From Octopus vulgaris (Eukaryota), in assembly GCA_951406725.2 (NCBI GenBank), contig OX597823.1, positions 48,794,001-48,858,000 of the forward strand: a stretch of DNA of 64,000 bases. Reading direction: 5' to 3'. Positions 3,101-64,000 of the stretch are shown here, piece by piece. How positions within the stretch are numbered: the stretch's first letter is position 1; each line of letters opens with the position of its first letter. Under the pieces are notes generated by a model, which saw only the letters and a program-made list of their open reading frames with translations, did no database searches and was not told the DNA's origin. The position numbers and the translations under genes are program-made.

Positions 3101-3524
3101 TAAACCCATGTTGTTTTTGTTGTTGTTTAGCTCGACATTAACTCTGACTGAGCAAACACACAATGAATGGTATTCCTTCCATGACAGTTGATATTTAGTT
3201 GCCACAGATAACCTATCTAGTTCCATATCATCTGATGTTTTGTCTCTTTTTAAAATAGTAGGGATTTGAAAGGGTACAAGCTGACCAAATTGTTGGCATG
3301 GTAGACAAAATGCTTAGTGGCATTTCTTCTGGTTTTACATTTTGAATTCTAATTTCATCCTTTCAGGTTGATAAAATAAGTACCATTGTGCAGTGGGGTG
3401 ATTGTAATCGACTTACCCCACCAAAGAAAAAAAAAATAAGGAAAAATTTAAGCATTGTTCTTATAGAAAAATAAAGAGTTTGGTGAGATTTAGAAGAGAT
3501 TTGCCAGGTCAAACAATTATATAA

Positions 3525-56944: not shown

Positions 56945-58329
56945 GAGAGAGAGAAAGAGAGAAAGAATTTGTATGTGTGGTTATATAAATACATTATCCT
57001 CACTCCAATTTTATTTTTTTCTTTCCTTTTCCCTTTTTCACCTCGGAAACTGTTTGAAGTGGAAAATGGAAAATTTATGGTTGTCGTATTACCTGAACTA
57101 ATGCCCAGAATGTACTAATCAGATAAGATTTTAAATATGTATTTTAACACTATTTAAACATACTGTTTTTGCAGGTACATAAAGCAAATGTGAAATTAAA
57201 TATAAAAGTGAAAAACCATTTCCCAGTTAGCACATCATTCTGCTAAAAAAAAAAATTTAATGTAAAACACATATTTACCATAAAGTCCTAATTTGTTCAT
57301 AAAGTAAAAAGAAATCATCAACATTGTTATCATCATCCTTTAATATCTGTTTTCCATGCTGGCATGGGTTGGATGGTTTGACCAAACCTGGTAAGCTGGA
57401 GAGCTGCACTAGGTTCTAGACTGATTTGGCTTTGTTTTGATAGCTGGATGCCCTTCCTAATGCCAACCACTTTATGGTGTGTGCTGGGTGTTTTTAATAT
57501 GACACCAGCACAAGCACTTCTTTATGGTATCAGCATAAGTGCTTTTTACATGATACCAGAACAGGATTCCTGCAGGCCAATGCTTTTCATCAGGGAGAGC
57601 AGCCTTATCATTTCTTACCATGGAGAATGGGTCTTGAGTACAGCAAGGTGCCATATATTTCAGTCCTTTGTCATCTCTGATTAATTCAGTCTCCTGAGGT
57701 CATCCTTTAATACTTTGCCCTGGGTCTCCCTCTTCCAAATATAACAAAATAAAATTATATATAAGACATTGTCTCCAGACTCTTCCTTTGTGTGACACAA
57801 TGCTGTTAAGATGAAACTTGCAAAGTTTTGTCCTTATTTTTTTCAATATTTTTCTTTGACAAGAAACCAAATGGCAAATGAAGAGAGGGGGAAGAGAAAT
57901 ATTTTTAAAATACATGTTTTCCTTTTGTTGTATCAGTGACATCTTTATTGTTTTTTTCCTTACTTGTTTCTAAGTTACTGGACTGGGAGCATGAAGGGGC
58001 ATCACCTTGAAGGGCTTTAGTTGAATGAACTGACTCTGGTAAACAGTTTTTTAAAGTCTGATCATTATTCTGTCTCTAATGCTAAATTGATAAATCACAG
58101 TGACATAATCAAACCAACACAAGTTGTCAAAAGGCAGTGGAAGACAAACACAAAGACAAACCCGCAGATACATATACATGCACACATACACATTATACAC
58201 ATATATATATATATATATATATATTTAAAAAAGGAGATGTCGAACACGAGTGGTGATATATAAAAAAGGAAATGAAGAAAATGCTGACAAATAATTGAAG
58301 TAATTTAAGTAATTTAATTAGGTGAAAGT

Positions 58330-58376
58330 TCTTTTTACCGGTTGCGCATTTGTTATGCTTATCAAAATATAAAAGA
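58330..58376 (-). ncRNA. Non-canonical hammerhead-like motif (left arm)
   Basis: TTGATAA-gcat aacaa atgc-GCAA-ccgg-TA-aaaaga. Confidence 0.6.
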
Positions 58377-59087
58377 GAGATTAGAGTCTGTCTCTTATAT
58401 GTGAAAAAAAGAGGCTCCAGAGTTGTTTGGGATTTGCTTGGTTTCGCGCCTAAAATTTTGATTGGTCATTATGAAGGGGTCACGTGAATGTTTGAATGGA
58501 AGTTGGTGTTGGGGTAAGAAAAAAGGCTCCAGAGAAGTTAAAATTTGGCTAGTGTCCCGCCTAAAATTTCTTATTGGCCATAATAAAGAGGTCACGTGAA
58601 TGTTTAGAATTTTCGAAAATAGTGTTGTTGAAAATTCTTATTGTTCAGGCTGGTCAGTAGACGTCATGTGGATATTTTAAATAGCTTTTTTAGCGCGTAG
58701 TTAGGGAGTGTATTTTCCGCTTGACTGGATAAGTAAGTTCGTTTAGAACAGGGAGAGCTGTATGTATGTATGTGTGTGCGCGCGCGCGCGCGCGTGTGTT
58801 TATATGTATGTTGGGGCGCGCGCGCGTGTATATATGTGTGTGTGTGTGGGTAAAATTTTCAATATTTATAGTTCTGCTGGCCTTGTGCCTGTATCGGGAA
58901 GCAACGTATTTGTGTGAAGTCAATATTTACAGCCATTTCCAAAAAATAGTGTTGGATGTTTTGCACCCGTATTCAATTATGTGTATGTGTGGAACCATAT
59001 ATTTGTGTGTGTCATGGTGTTAATATCTGGGTAAAGGTGTGTGTAGGGTGTGTGTGCAGGTGTAAGTGTGTTTGTTGTGGGTTCGTG

Positions 59088-60372
59088 TTAGGGGCATGTG
59101 TTTAGAAGTGGTCTGTATTTATTAATAAGGTTGGATTCCATGGTTATTCGCTGGGTATGAGTGGCATTGTCTTTAAATTTGTAGAGGGGAAAGATTCTAA
59201 AATTGGGATGGAGTTGTGCGGCACAGGTATCAATATGTGCACTAAATGCTATTTTTCTATATTCCTGTATTTTTATTTGGGATCTGTGGACAGTCATGCG
59301 TTGGCGGAGGCTATTTTTTGTTTGGCCTATGTAGTGTTCATTACAGCCCGAGCAAGTTAAGACATATACTAGGTTTTCTGATGCGCATGTGAAGTTGTGT
59401 TTTACTGTGAAACGTTGTCCTTGTTTAAAAAGGAATTCCGGACCTTCTATTAGGTTGATGCATATACCACAGTTGGGTCTATTGCATTTGTTTACTGTGG
59501 GTTTAGTTGTTGTGGTTGGCAGTACTTTGGCATTTGTTAAGATGGTTTTCAATGATTTGGGTTGCCTTTTGCTCTTTATGATTTCGTGTGTTAGGAGGAT
59601 TTGGTTCATTCTATGGTCCTTTTGTAATACAGGAATGTTCTGGAGGATGGTGTCAAAAGCTTCATTGTTGAGGGGGTTGTGTGTAGAGATGTATGGTAGA
59701 GTATGGGGTTTCGATGTAACAGGTTTAGGGCGTCTAAGTTCCTGCGTGCTGAGTTTTAGGGCGCGTTGGATCCCATTGTCAATTAGTGACGTGGGGTAAT
59801 CCCTGCTTGTTAATGTGCCCTTGAGTTCTTGTAGACGTAAGAGACGGGTGTTTTTATTGGAGACTATAGTGCAAATTCTCTTGGCTAAGTTGTAGGGAAT
59901 GTTAATTTTAACGTGTCTAGGGTGGCATGAATTGAAAGGGAGGTATTGCTTGGAGTCTGTGGTCTTGTAGTATATGTCTGTTTCTATTTTTTTGTTGTGA
60001 ATTTTAATGAGGATGTCGAGGAAGGGAATTTGTTGAGGGCTGTATTCCATTGTGAAAATAATGTTTGTGTTGAGCCCATTTATAAGAGTGTGAAATTCGT
60101 TAAGCTTCTCGACGGTTTCGGGCCAAAGGATGAAGCAGTCATCAAGATATCTCTTCCAGTTCTTCTCGATGTGTGTGTGGAGAGAGGTGCCAAATTGGTT
60201 AAGAACGTTATTATAGAGGGTGATTTCCAGGTATCCCATGACTAAGTTGGCGTAAGTGGGAGCTGTTTTCGTTCCCATTGCCGTCCCTGATTTCTGTCTG
60301 TAGAATTTGTTGTTGAAGGTGAAGAAATTATTCTCTAAGATGAATTTGAGTCCTTCTAAAATAAATTCCTTT
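59088..60372 (-). CDS. PLE polyprotein, 5'-truncated: RT core C-half + thumb + Cys linker + GIY-YIG endonuclease
   Basis: YRQKSGTAMGTKTAPTYANLVMG, WKRYLDDCF, IPFLDI, YLPFNSCHP, KCNRPNCGIC, LVYVLTCSGCNEHYIGQT, RMTVH, ESNLINKYRPLLN. The frame is uninterrupted. The ORF-track N-terminus (60373-60434) is junction-derived. Confidence 0.93.
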
Positions 60373-60853
60373 AAGGCAACCCAAATCATTGAAAACCATC
60401 CTAACAAATGCCAAAGTACTGCCAACCACAACAACTAAACCCACAGTAAACAAATGCAATAGACCCAACTGTGGTATATGCATCAACCTAATAGAAGGTC
60501 CGGAATTCCTTTTTAAACAAGGACAACGTTTCACAGTAAAACACAACTTCACATGCGCATCAGAAAACCTAGTATATGTCTTAACTTGCTCGGGCTGTAA
60601 TGAACACTACATAGGCCAAACAAAAAATAGCCTCCGCCAACGCATGACTGTCCACAGATCCCAAATAAAAATACAGGAATATAGAAAAATAGCATTTAGT
60701 GCACATATTGATACCTGTGCCGCACAACTCCATCCCAATTTTAGAATCTTTCCCCTCTACAAATTTAAAGACAATGCCACTCATACCCAGCGAATAACCA
60801 TGGAATCCAACCTTATTAATAAATACAGACCACTTCTAAACACATGCCCCTAA
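60373..60853 (+). CDS. Duplicated GIY-YIG endonuclease domain in the inverted arm (no native start)
   Basis: Identical translation to the C-terminus of the minus-strand ORF. Confidence 0.8.
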
Positions 60854-61269
60854 CACGAACCCACAACAAACACACTTACACCTGCACACACCCTACACAC
60901 ACCTTTACCCAGATATTAACACCATGACACACACAAATATATGGTTCCACACATACACATAATTGAATACGGGTGCAAAACATCCAACACTATTTTTTGG
61001 AAATGGCTGTAAATATTGACTTCACACAAATACGTTGCTTCCCGATACAGGCACAAGGCCAGCAGAACTATAAATATTGAAAATTTTACCCACACACACA
61101 CACATATATACACGCGCGCGCGCCCCAACATACATATAAACACACGCGCGCGCGCGCGCGCGCACACACATACATACATACAGCTCTCCCTGTTCTAAAC
61201 GAACTTACTTATCCAGTCAAGCGGAAAATACACTCCCTAACTACGCGCTAAAAAGCTATTTAAAATATC

Positions 61270-61550
61270 CACATGACGTCTACTGACCAGCCTGAACAAT
61301 AAGAATTTTCAACAACACTATTTTCGAAAATTCTAAACATTCACGTGACCTCTTTATTATGGCCAATAAGAAATTTTAGGCGGGACACTAGCCAAATTTT
61401 AACTTCTCTGGAGCCTTTTTTCTTACCCCAACACCAACTTCCATTCAAACATTCACGTGACCCCTTCATAATGACCAATCAAAATTTTAGGCGCGAAACC
61501 AAGCAAATCCCAAACAACTCTGGAGCCTCTTTTTTTCACATATAAGAGAC
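61270..61550 (+). promoter_or_regulatory. Putative pLTR promoter (mirrored at ~58390-58670 on the minus strand)
   Basis: CRE-like tgacgtc. Two modules 112 bp apart, each with tcacgtgac, ccaat and ttttaggcg(g/c)ga. A TATA-like catataag lies ~30 nt upstream of the hammerhead-like motif. Confidence 0.55.
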
Positions 61551-61563
61551 AGACTCTAATCTC

Positions 61564-61610
61564 TCTTTTATATTTTGATAAGCATAACAAATGCGCAACC
61601 GGTAAAAAGA
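61564..61610 (+). ncRNA. Non-canonical hammerhead-like motif (right arm)
   Basis: TTGATAA (61575-81), stem II gcat/atgc, GCAA (61595-98), palindromic accggt, TA. Confidence 0.6.
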
Positions 61611-61670
61611 ACTTTCACCTAATTAAATTACTTAAATTACTTCAATTATTTGTCAGCATTTTCTTCATTT

Positions 61671-61720
<50 letters not shown>

Positions 61721-61986: not shown

Positions 61987-62105
61987 TCTCTTATTATAAA
62001 AGGCAGATTTTATCTGCCTCCCTTTGTCACTTATAGAAATCTACAATATAGGATTTCTTCAATTACAATTTACTTAGCATTTTTAAGAGTAGAATGCATC
62101 GGGTT
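61987..62105 (+). mobile_element. Truncated 5' end of a second Helitron-like family
   Basis: Starts a^TCtcttattataaaaggcag. Near-identical to 62565-62683. Confidence 0.65.
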
Positions 62106-62564: not shown

Positions 62565-64000
62565 TCTCTTATTATAAAAGGCAGATTTTATCTGCCTCCC
62601 TTTGTCAGTTATAGAAATCTACAATATAGGATTTCTTCAATTACAATTTACTTAGCATTTTTAAGAGTAGAATGCATCGGGTTTTGCCAGGTCCACTTTT
62701 TAAAATTTAAACTCCAATTAAGCAAAATTTACAGAAAACTCACATTCTGGTGTGTATGTCAAATGTTTTTCTTAATGTGGTTTACACCACACGCACACGC
62801 ACACACACAGTGTGCAACGAATAAAATGAAAGTAATTCACATTTTGTAGTGAGTGACTCTTTCAGTCTGCCACTTCCTCTTTACACACATAGATACGCAA
62901 ATATATAAATAAAATTGTAAGCTAACGTGCGTGTGTGTGAGTGTGTGTGTGCGTGTGTGTGTGTGTGAGGGTGCGTGTGTGTGTGTGTGTGTGTGCGTGA
63001 GTGTGTGACAGGAAAGTTTTTTAGGACGAATATAAGACCTATATCGGCGATGTTTCGCTTGTCGTAGCACAGGTTTCCGTCGATTTCCGTAAAAAACTTT
63101 TATTTTTTTACATAAGTAATGAGAGCGAAAGAGACTAAGAGAAAGCGATTGTATGACGAGGGAAGTTCTTTTGAAGTTACCGTGCATGGGACGCATTGAT
63201 GTACATGTGTGTGTGTGTGTGTGTGTGTTTGATGGAGTGTGGGAGACAGACAGTATGTTGTGTAAGTGAAGTGCTTCTGTTAGTGTGTGTGAAGAGACAG
63301 AGAGAGTAATGTATGAAAGAGAGAGATAACTGAATTTTTTTACTCGGTGTATGTGTATATGTATGTATGCATGTATGTGTGTGTGTGTGTATGTATGTGT
63401 GTGTGTATGTATGTATGTATGGCCGATTCAGTGTTTACATTTTTTACGGAAATCGACGGAAACGTGTGCTACGACAAGCGAAACATCGCCCCTATATCCA
63501 AGTAGCAGAAAGATCGCCCAAAAGTGTATATAGATATTTAAATGTATTTATATATTCATCTATACACAGATGTATGTATAATGTGTGTGTATATATTTCC
63601 ATACACGTAACCATTCACTCCACACAAAGTTTTTTAGGACGAAAATAAGATCTAAAGTTATCTCTAAGTAGCACAGAGATCGCTCAAAAGTGTATATAGA
63701 TATATAAATGTATTTATATATTCATCTATGCACACATGTATGTATAACGTGTGTGTATATATTTCCATAGAGGTAACCATTCACTCCATACAAAGTTTTT
63801 TAGCACGAAAATAAGATCTAAAGTTATCTCTAAGAAACAGAAAGATCGCCCAAAAGTGTATATAGATATTTAAATGTATTTATATATTCATCTATACACA
63901 CATGTATGTATAATGTGCGTGTATATATTTCCATAGAGGTAACCATTCAATCCATACAAAGTTTTTTAGGATGAAAATATTTATATATAAAAGAAAGGTT
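62565..64000 (+). mobile_element. Second Helitron-like element with internal inverted repeat and 166-bp tandem repeats (probably continues past the window end)
   Basis: TC start abuts the preceding CTAG. IR at 63046-63096 / 63440-63490. aaagtgtatatagatat at 63521, 63687 and 63853. Confidence 0.65.

Follow-up and report, generated by a model that had tools for sequence, protein, structure and literature searches.

A cytosine at core position 13 of a hammerhead-like motif is fixed in a young Penelope-like family of Octopus vulgaris, and genomic chimeras mark its predicted cut site

Introduction

Does a hammerhead-like motif that carries C in place of the consensus A at core position 13 still cut its own RNA? 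The question is raised by a Penelope-like element (PLE) in a 64-kb stretch of Octopus vulgaris DNA (64,000 nucleotides, here called the window), and it bears on a wider one, namely whether the weak minimal hammerheads of PLEs cut at all in cells. An earlier note on this DNA had left the motif between a natural variant ribozyme and a catalytically dead fold. Small PLE-associated hammerheads with a reduced stem III are said, in the 2017 work of Lunse, Weinberg and Breaker, to cleave as dimers; that work is reportedly the largest survey of such motifs, and its alignments may include position-13 variants. Hammerhead searches hold A13 to be obligatory: in the account given in PMC3088659, Perreault et al. 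(2011) rejected any core change, and the descriptors for PLE hammerheads given in PMC4209133 use GAAA.

Results

A hammerhead-like motif in both arms of an inverted insertion

The element in the window is a 5'-truncated inverted insertion that retains only the C-terminus of the reverse transcriptase (RT) and the GIY-YIG domain. Its two arms match at 1,309 of 1,310 aligned bases, with five gap positions, and each carries the motif (Table 1). The earlier note was right that CUGAUGA is missing here and that both arms have the same U3/A8/C13 core: CUGANGA is absent from both strands between 58200 and 61750. Rfam yields no hammerhead match in the 64-kb window, and none at E ≤10 within 61400-61700. 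We then used a covariance model made from 17 A13 hammerheads (16 of them distinct) of other families in this genome, with none from the C13 family itself. This model finds exactly two places in the 64-kb window, the motif scoring 29.3 bits (E 3e-4) and the next match 14.8 bits. Its recovery by a model that knows only other families' A13 hammerheads shows that the motif is not a product of chance.

G12, A14, A15.1-U16.1 and H17 are all present in the motif of the C13 family. Letter by letter, position 13 is the sole unusual base of the core. The expression 'rewired core', which had been applied to this motif, is an overstatement; no compensating change for C13 was found.

Table 1. Features of the element and of its hammerhead-like motif, in window coordinates
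Feature	Position	Strand	Remark
5'-truncated Penelope-like element: RT C-terminus, thumb, Cys linker, GIY-YIG, pLTR, tail ending (TA)n	58224..60374	-	
Coding fragment	~59088-60374	-	GIY-YIG PF01541, E 5e-6; compared with full-length L031
Inverted second arm: ORF2 end to 60853, then pLTR	60373..61684	+	ends at internal TA-like site beside (TA)n
Hammerhead-like U3/A8/C13 motif	61575-61604	+	
Second identical motif copy, other arm	58365-58336	-	
Core 5' strand U3-U4-G5-A6-U7-A8-A9	61575..61581	+	from sequence; U3-A8 is the covariant of C3-G8
U3; A8; A9	61575; 61580; 61581	+	hammerhead numbering
Stem II, 4 bp opened by G10.1-C11.1, 5-nt loop	61582..61594	+	arms 61582-85/61591-94
G12; C13 (consensus A); A14	61595; 61596; 61597	+	
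Stem III self-complementary hexamer, then A17	61598..61604	+	hexamer 61598-61603 (A15.1 61598, U16.1 61603); A17 61604
Predicted cut	61604|61605	+	chimera junctions at the base equivalent to 61605
In-register stem I, 2 bp, 5' strand	61573..61574	+	pairs with 61605-61606
Off-register helix	61564..61569 with 61605-61610	+	in that register only in young subfamilies
Tail (would-be 5'-OH cleavage product)	61605..61684	+	young-subfamily tail, as in U6atac chimera L315

The host element and its family

The window copy is itself not autonomous. The earlier description of an apparently active element does not hold for this truncated copy; intact full-length copies exist elsewhere. Three of the four long loci examined are intact, with a 468-472-aa frame overlapping a 784-aa frame. 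Full-length copies carry the motif twice, 4,471-4,478 nt apart, on either side of the two open frames; in the three that we searched with the covariance model there is no further hammerhead, and nothing else scores above 11.4 bits. ORF1 and ORF2 overlap by 70 nt (L031:3285-3354), with a U-rich slippery heptamer at ~3315-3321, and a -1 frameshift is likely. This two-ORF family comprises about 2,000 copies in a genome of 2.8 Gb. It is young, since all 40 candidates scored among 744 are identical to the window over 161 nt.

A module of the pLTR is duplicated (window 61342-61386 and 61454-61498, plus strand), 100-260 nt before the hammerhead. It contains words that we take to be E-box-like, CCAAT and E2F-like, suggesting a possible internal promoter of the cell-cycle type. 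Downstream of the element there are three tandem 166-nt repeats, 87-92% alike (window 63493-63990), and a 119-nt direct duplication with 99% identity (61987-62105 and 62565-62683).

Homologues of the coding fragment are proteins with RT and GIY-YIG domains, at 44-61% identity among the 120 listed, and the named ones come from molluscs. The linker before GIY-YIG reads C-X4-C-X2-C and the insertions end in (TA)n. Both features would fit the Neptune-type elements as PMC8557442 describes them, with a CX2-5CxxC linker, a C-terminal GIY-YIG domain and (TA)n targets.

C13 is fixed in the family and derived from A13

It had been proposed to check whether U3, A8 and C13 are fixed in the family. For an unbiased sample the search was anchored in the tail, outside the core, and its first 100 matches on contig 1 were used. 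The 83 copies with a full core by our filter have C13 in 83/83, U3 in 82/83 and A8 in 82/83, with decay mostly at CpG positions. Two of the remaining 17 have intact cores with a shorter A run; the others are truncated, deleted, chimeric or members of a subfamily with an insert. The tail pattern has 2,063 matches genome-wide, and a pattern for the strand ending in C13 has 2,479 matches against 234 for the reversed control. In contigs from eight public sequencing runs (five organism labels) the core letters never differ.

Position 13 is also C in most copies of an older-looking subfamily with 629 matches (98 C and 2 U among the 100 listed). The same stem II followed by a base other than C at position 13 was matched 27 times genome-wide, eight times in other repeats and 19 times in the family (16 U, 2 G and 1 A). 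The sole A13 copy has a C13 partner arm, which marks it as a later mutation, so that an A13 ancestor within the family was rejected; U13 as the older state was ruled out by the C in the older-type copies. A minor lineage of 16 copies (L035-L061) does have U13, which we read as a sign that position 13 may tolerate, or drift to, either pyrimidine.

Outside the family, the U3-A8 core with a base other than C at position 13 and the same palindrome has 5,183 matches, compared with 11 for the control. Among the 100 listed all have A13, with several unrelated stems II, and many such U3-A8/A13 motifs sit behind PLE ORFs that are 50-73% identical to that of the C13 family. Non-A13 copies in the sister families are sporadic (49 matches, of which nine belong to the C13 family by hand count). 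In a tree of ORF2 from 15 loci and six unnamed homologues, the three C13 rows, two of which fill less than half of the columns, join the A13 family that we call 'GGTC', with support of 100/99, and every other family of this genome in the tree has A13. By these relationships the motif of the C13 family is a hammerhead by descent, and its C13 is derived from A13, because the sister GGTC family and all other sampled families in the genome have A13. The U3-A8 pair is ordinary, both in this genome and in the literature. Its earlier interpretation as a described compensatory variant agrees with passages of PMC4209133 and PMC3088659, the former reporting it from Cercyon of Schistosoma mansoni (Cervera and de la Pena 2014).

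Two other groups of U3-A8 hammerheads were seen in the genome. A second young family (776-aa ORF2, 57% identical; L122-L136) has one with a U10.1-U11.1 mismatch, separated from the ORF by about 2 kb and lying beyond a long 3' region of degenerate microsatellite. Tandem repeats of ~340-360 nt, retrozyme-like, have others with a 6-bp stem I (L195-L198, L203, L204, L209, L210, L214 and L215).

Stems, folding and selection

Stem II folds with a pair probability of 0.96-0.99, and stem III forms a 6-bp intermolecular helix in the cofold. In register, stem I has two contiguous pairs in three C13 subfamilies compared with three to seven in six sister families, and its pair probability in the monomer is 0.00. 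The earlier note had called stem I weak. This is so in register. The 6-bp helix that sets the bounds of that note (Table 1) was rejected as stem I, since it is off register by 5 nt in the young subfamily and is not conserved, shifting in older ones.

Among 17 sister-family motifs, which were picked by core pattern and not by stems and from which the structure itself was drawn, the pairing of stems I-III amounts to 86.9%, and 48 cells are changed on both sides; shuffles reach 60.3% (0/500 as high) and the best slid control 47.5%. Stems I and II thus covary across the sister families, which answers the concern that stem II might be neither conserved nor covarying; within the C13 family stem II shows no covariation. 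The family consensus is non-canonical, and the full-length copies hold no second hammerhead that might have taken its place.

Across eight subfamily classes the 30-nt core is free of indels, while the 40 nt upstream of it differ by about six and the 45 nt downstream by about three. The upstream indels come within 2-4 nt of stem I, all stopping short of its two U's, and the 2-bp stem I is kept in all eight classes. The catalytic strand is identical in seven of the eight, and the eighth differs by CpG decay. That indels spare the core is only suggestive of selection, at a rough P of 0.04 from hand counts, and an unchanged core is weak proof because the subfamilies are young, their ORF2 being 96% identical.

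In the young subfamily, a branch-like sequence and a pyrimidine tract upstream evoke a 3' splice site inside the core. We rejected this candidate, as the tract is not kept in older subfamilies; the contigs from the eight public runs show no splice joint and are uninformative on splicing or expression. A subfamily of at least 40 copies (for example L246:1135-1329 on the minus strand, L222, L238, L244 and L398-L417) has an insert of 195 nt, containing an internal duplication of 112 nt, at the A run that directly follows A17. The insert may itself be a ligation product. A search for its source gave 43 genome matches, all apparently from the same subfamily.

Chimeras joined at the predicted cut

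In six genomic chimeras the C13-family tail begins with the base that directly follows the predicted cut (+1). Its partners are U6 (two), U6atac (one) and the 5' cleavage half of a retrozyme (three). A pattern designed for copies whose first base is the one following A17 has 25 matches, spread over 22 loci, of which 12 are true 5' junctions and ten are deletions, point changes, scrambled or insert-derived. The 12 loci starting at +1 compare with about 3.4 expected, an excess that is no longer significant when the background is set at its upper bound (P 0.11). Three of the 12 junctions are preceded by the 3' end of U6 (L314, L324) or of U6atac (L315), with Rfam scores of 52.5 bits for U6 at L314 and 80.6 bits for U6atac at L315.

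For U6 the position of the joint was confirmed by searches with a free offset. With the anchor at +5 and a free span of at most 30 nt in front of it there were three matches; with the anchor near +50 and a span of at most 60 nt there were four, all of them at +1. Both searches return the same loci, so that 2/2 loci and 4/4 arms lie at +1. The U6atac case came from a pattern that demanded +1 and is not position-blind.

In the unbiased sample described above, the tail of one copy is preceded by a retrozyme hammerhead's 5' half, which ends at that ribozyme's own C17. Retrozyme ends that are not followed by their own intact tail number 18 matches, with the C13-family tail in five, their own decayed tail in ten and unrelated sequence in three. 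The five correspond to three loci: C1 has a duplicated one, C5 an inverted pair and C15 a single one. All are joined at +1 save one arm of the inverted pair, which is short of one A. The retrozyme is a variant with a U3-G8 mismatch and a longer stem III palindrome (L418, L423/L424, L428). Among the PLE partners listed it is joined only to the C13-family tail, never to GGTC or GC tails, and co-expression or a specific partnership with the C13 family is possible.

The six events are independent of one another, because their tails come from at least three subfamilies; the U6atac chimera has the window's own youngest tail. All the subfamilies that supply tails have C13 in their consensus, and none of the six junctions contains extra bases. 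According to PMC6789731, RtcB joins the cyclic phosphate of U6 to 5'-OH ends and requires both, U6atac likewise ends in a cyclic phosphate, and the junctions of L1 chimeras have no preferred site. Hammerhead cleavage products bear a cyclic phosphate and a 5'-OH, as stated in PMC6155905, and retrozyme ends are efficiently ligated by RtcB, as stated in PMC7229834. The simplest reading of the joints is that RNA of the C13 family would have a 5'-OH at +1, and a template jump from a cut end would need that same +1 end.

Reciprocal chimeras, with the 5' half from the C13 family and the tail from another, are found in 0/10 matches of a search that is blind to partners starting with A; these are eight point changes or short deletions, one chance match and one arm ending at A17. 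At L374 an inverted arm stops exactly at A17; 19 foreign bases and then (TA)n come next, which looks as though a 5' cleavage product had been copied. Short deletions at L316, L317, L321, L326 and L327 have the predicted cut as their 3' edge, as trimming and religation would give, in a search that forced this edge and is without a null.

A13 sister families and the frequency of cutting

A survey of U6 3' ends, which serves as a positive control, gave 237 matches, and 50 loci among the 100 listed were inspected (30 taken automatically and 20 by hand). Five continue with the GGTC tail at exactly +1, one with the +1 of a short-stem family and one with that of a third family (L361, L379, L381, L382, L396, L391 and L388, on contigs C1-C6). 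A further inspected locus, L397, has a similar inverted pair of U6 and PLE-like sequence. Among the U6 3' ends listed, more than half are succeeded within a few bases by one of a few common short repeats, beginning at the repeat's start. A tandem array on C1 (139422713-139429795; L346-L352) holds at least seven U6 copies at intervals of ~1.1-1.4 kb and is probably a U6 gene cluster.

In a hand tabulation of 5' junctions into (TA)n, the cut is the joining point at 11 of 32 GGTC loci against one to three of 25 loci of the C13 family (Fisher p 0.007 to 0.07). Four of the GGTC junctions lie exactly at +1 without TA microhomology. We read this pile-up as a second fossil sign of cleavage. U6 chimeras occur at two loci per ~2,000 C13-family copies compared with at least five per ~2,200 GGTC copies, the latter copy number being estimated by hand from ~43 of the first 100 rows of the 5,183 matches. 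Thus the A13 sisters probably show the footprint at the cut more often than the C13 family does, and the C13 motif probably cuts less than that of its sister, on chimera and junction counts that are small and confounded by age and expression. PMC4075628, citing earlier work, gives the cost of A13 changes in a minimal ribozyme as 10-100-fold and not >100-fold.

Discussion

We consider it fairly probable that the motif is a weakened but working C13 hammerhead that acts as a dimer. It is a derived form of the minimal PLE hammerhead, changed from A13 to C and with just two in-register pairs in stem I. Two copies, from two pLTRs or from two RNAs, would pair through the palindromic stem III, and the C13 core would slowly cut its own RNA after A17, the catalytic strand being presumably the family's own. 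Cleavage would leave a 5'-OH on the short pLTR tail, to which RtcB may now and then ligate RNAs with a cyclic phosphate (U6, U6atac or the retrozyme 5' half), and the element's RT could then copy the chimera into (TA)n. Cutting would be rarer than in the A13 sister, which would suit an element whose insertions usually hold uncut hammerheads. The variant ribozyme is favoured over the dead fold, the two options of the earlier note, because the chimeras mark the predicted cut. These joints are a fossil footprint in the genome sequence, and from them it is likely that the motif still cuts in living cells. Six events are a small number, and the chimeras are silent on which strand gave the catalytic core.

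In a rival view the C13 strand is inactive and serves as substrate only: another family would supply an A13 catalytic strand that cuts the RNA in trans, the two molecules pairing as a heterodimer through the stem III palindrome. Most families of this genome, among them six sister families, have that palindrome, and in the established model of the double hammerhead as described in PMC4209133 the entire strand from C3 to A14 comes from the partner. The strand of the 776-aa family would give two contiguous stem I pairs, equal to the family's own strand, but sister strands give only zero to two and none does better than the own strand. Moreover, the retrozyme partner of the chimeras differs from the C13 family in its palindrome and lacks a matching stem I, and the family's own catalytic strand and stem II are undecayed across subfamilies. 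We regard cutting in trans as unlikely. A fold that does not cut at all, in which the +1 ends are left by a protein nuclease, mark a start of transcription or arise when the RT stops and jumps template, and which persists through recent expansion of the family or as a protein-binding signal, is in our judgement less likely again. It would account for the coincidence of two departures (C13 and the 2-bp stem I), for (TA)n junctions that do not pile up at the site in the C13 family, and for a subfamily of at least 40 copies that spread despite the 195-nt insert at the site; Naiad elements, too, spread without canonical hammerheads, as PMC8557442 describes. However, the junction is the exact position predicted downstream of NUH, in A13 families with unrelated post-cut sequences as well, all three identified kinds of donor are cyclic-phosphate RNAs, as ligation to a 5'-OH predicts, and the junctions are clean.

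The least probable alternative, and to us a very improbable one, is that the RNA alone is nearly inactive and that ORF1p or a host chaperone provides what the fold has lost in A13 and stem I. According to PMC4209133, minimal PLE hammerheads show weak activity in vitro and were proposed to depend on factors in vivo, and the rate of U6 chimeras in the C13 family is within a few fold of that in the A13 sister, not 10-100-fold lower; but the numbers of chimeras behind that rate are very small and vary with expression and age. If the working C13 hammerhead is taken further, a hammerhead with a pyrimidine at position 13 and a two-pair stem I would cut in the germ line within a few fold of its A13 sister, and would need alternative core packing or a helper protein. 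We hold this stronger proposition to be rather doubtful. If it is true, some share of the 'hammerhead-less' Penelope-like families hold working ribozymes that descriptors have rejected.

Fixed in a family that is both young and successful, C13 extends the range of natural hammerhead sequences and marks a blind spot of searches; if the motif still cuts, standard ribozyme searches miss working variants. Furthermore, chimeras with cyclic-phosphate RNAs offer a read-out of a cut site from the genome only, and the C13 family with its canonical A13 sister is a natural pair for comparison at the bench.

In the texts covered we found no natural A13 substitution and no report of PLE-U6 snRNA chimeras. 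The passages covered of PMC2553840, PMC11014351 and PMC6155905 do not mention A13, main-text passages of the deep-mutagenesis study PMC9901934 give no value for A13, and PMC11838501 mentions neither Penelope nor ribozymes. The C13 form would be new, the kind of motif and the U3-A8 pair being already known.

Compared with the variants of Perreault et al. 2011 (PMC3088659), the C13 motif shares the natural U3-A8 pair, and the U10.1-U11.1 mismatch that is also found there occurs here in the 776-aa family. The text of that paper names U3-A8, A6C, the insertions A6a and U13a, U15.1-A16.1 and U4C, with no A13 substitution named among them, and it reports that single core changes can leave low activity. 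Its cases are rare single sequences, whereas C13 is fixed in a family of thousands. In the U6/LINE-1 and U6atac/LINE-1 chimeric pseudogenes (Moldovan 2019, PMC6789731), which result from RtcB ligation, the U6 3' end with its U tract is joined to a retroelement RNA and retrotransposed, as in the present chimeras. However, the LINE-1 junctions are described there as variable and the nuclease as unknown, whereas the present junctions keep to a single base, that of the predicted ribozyme cut.

The PLEs of the Neptune clade, as described in PMC8557442, share with the C13 family an optional ORF1 separated by a frameshift, as well as tandem and inverted insertions. In that account canonical hammerheads are universal outside Naiad and Chlamys, whereas the C13 family is without any. 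The closest known system is the minimal type I hammerhead of PLEs described in PMC4209133. It has in common with the C13 motif the place in the pLTR, the type I layout, G10.1-C11.1, a palindromic stem III that favours dimers and the U3-A8 covariation. The consensus in that paper has GAAA and a stem I of 3-5 bp, whereas the present motif has C13 and an in-register stem I of 2 bp, and it is without the extra base found there between A9 and 10.1. Evidence of cutting in cells was called lacking in PMC4209133; the junctions in the octopus genome are a probable sign of it.
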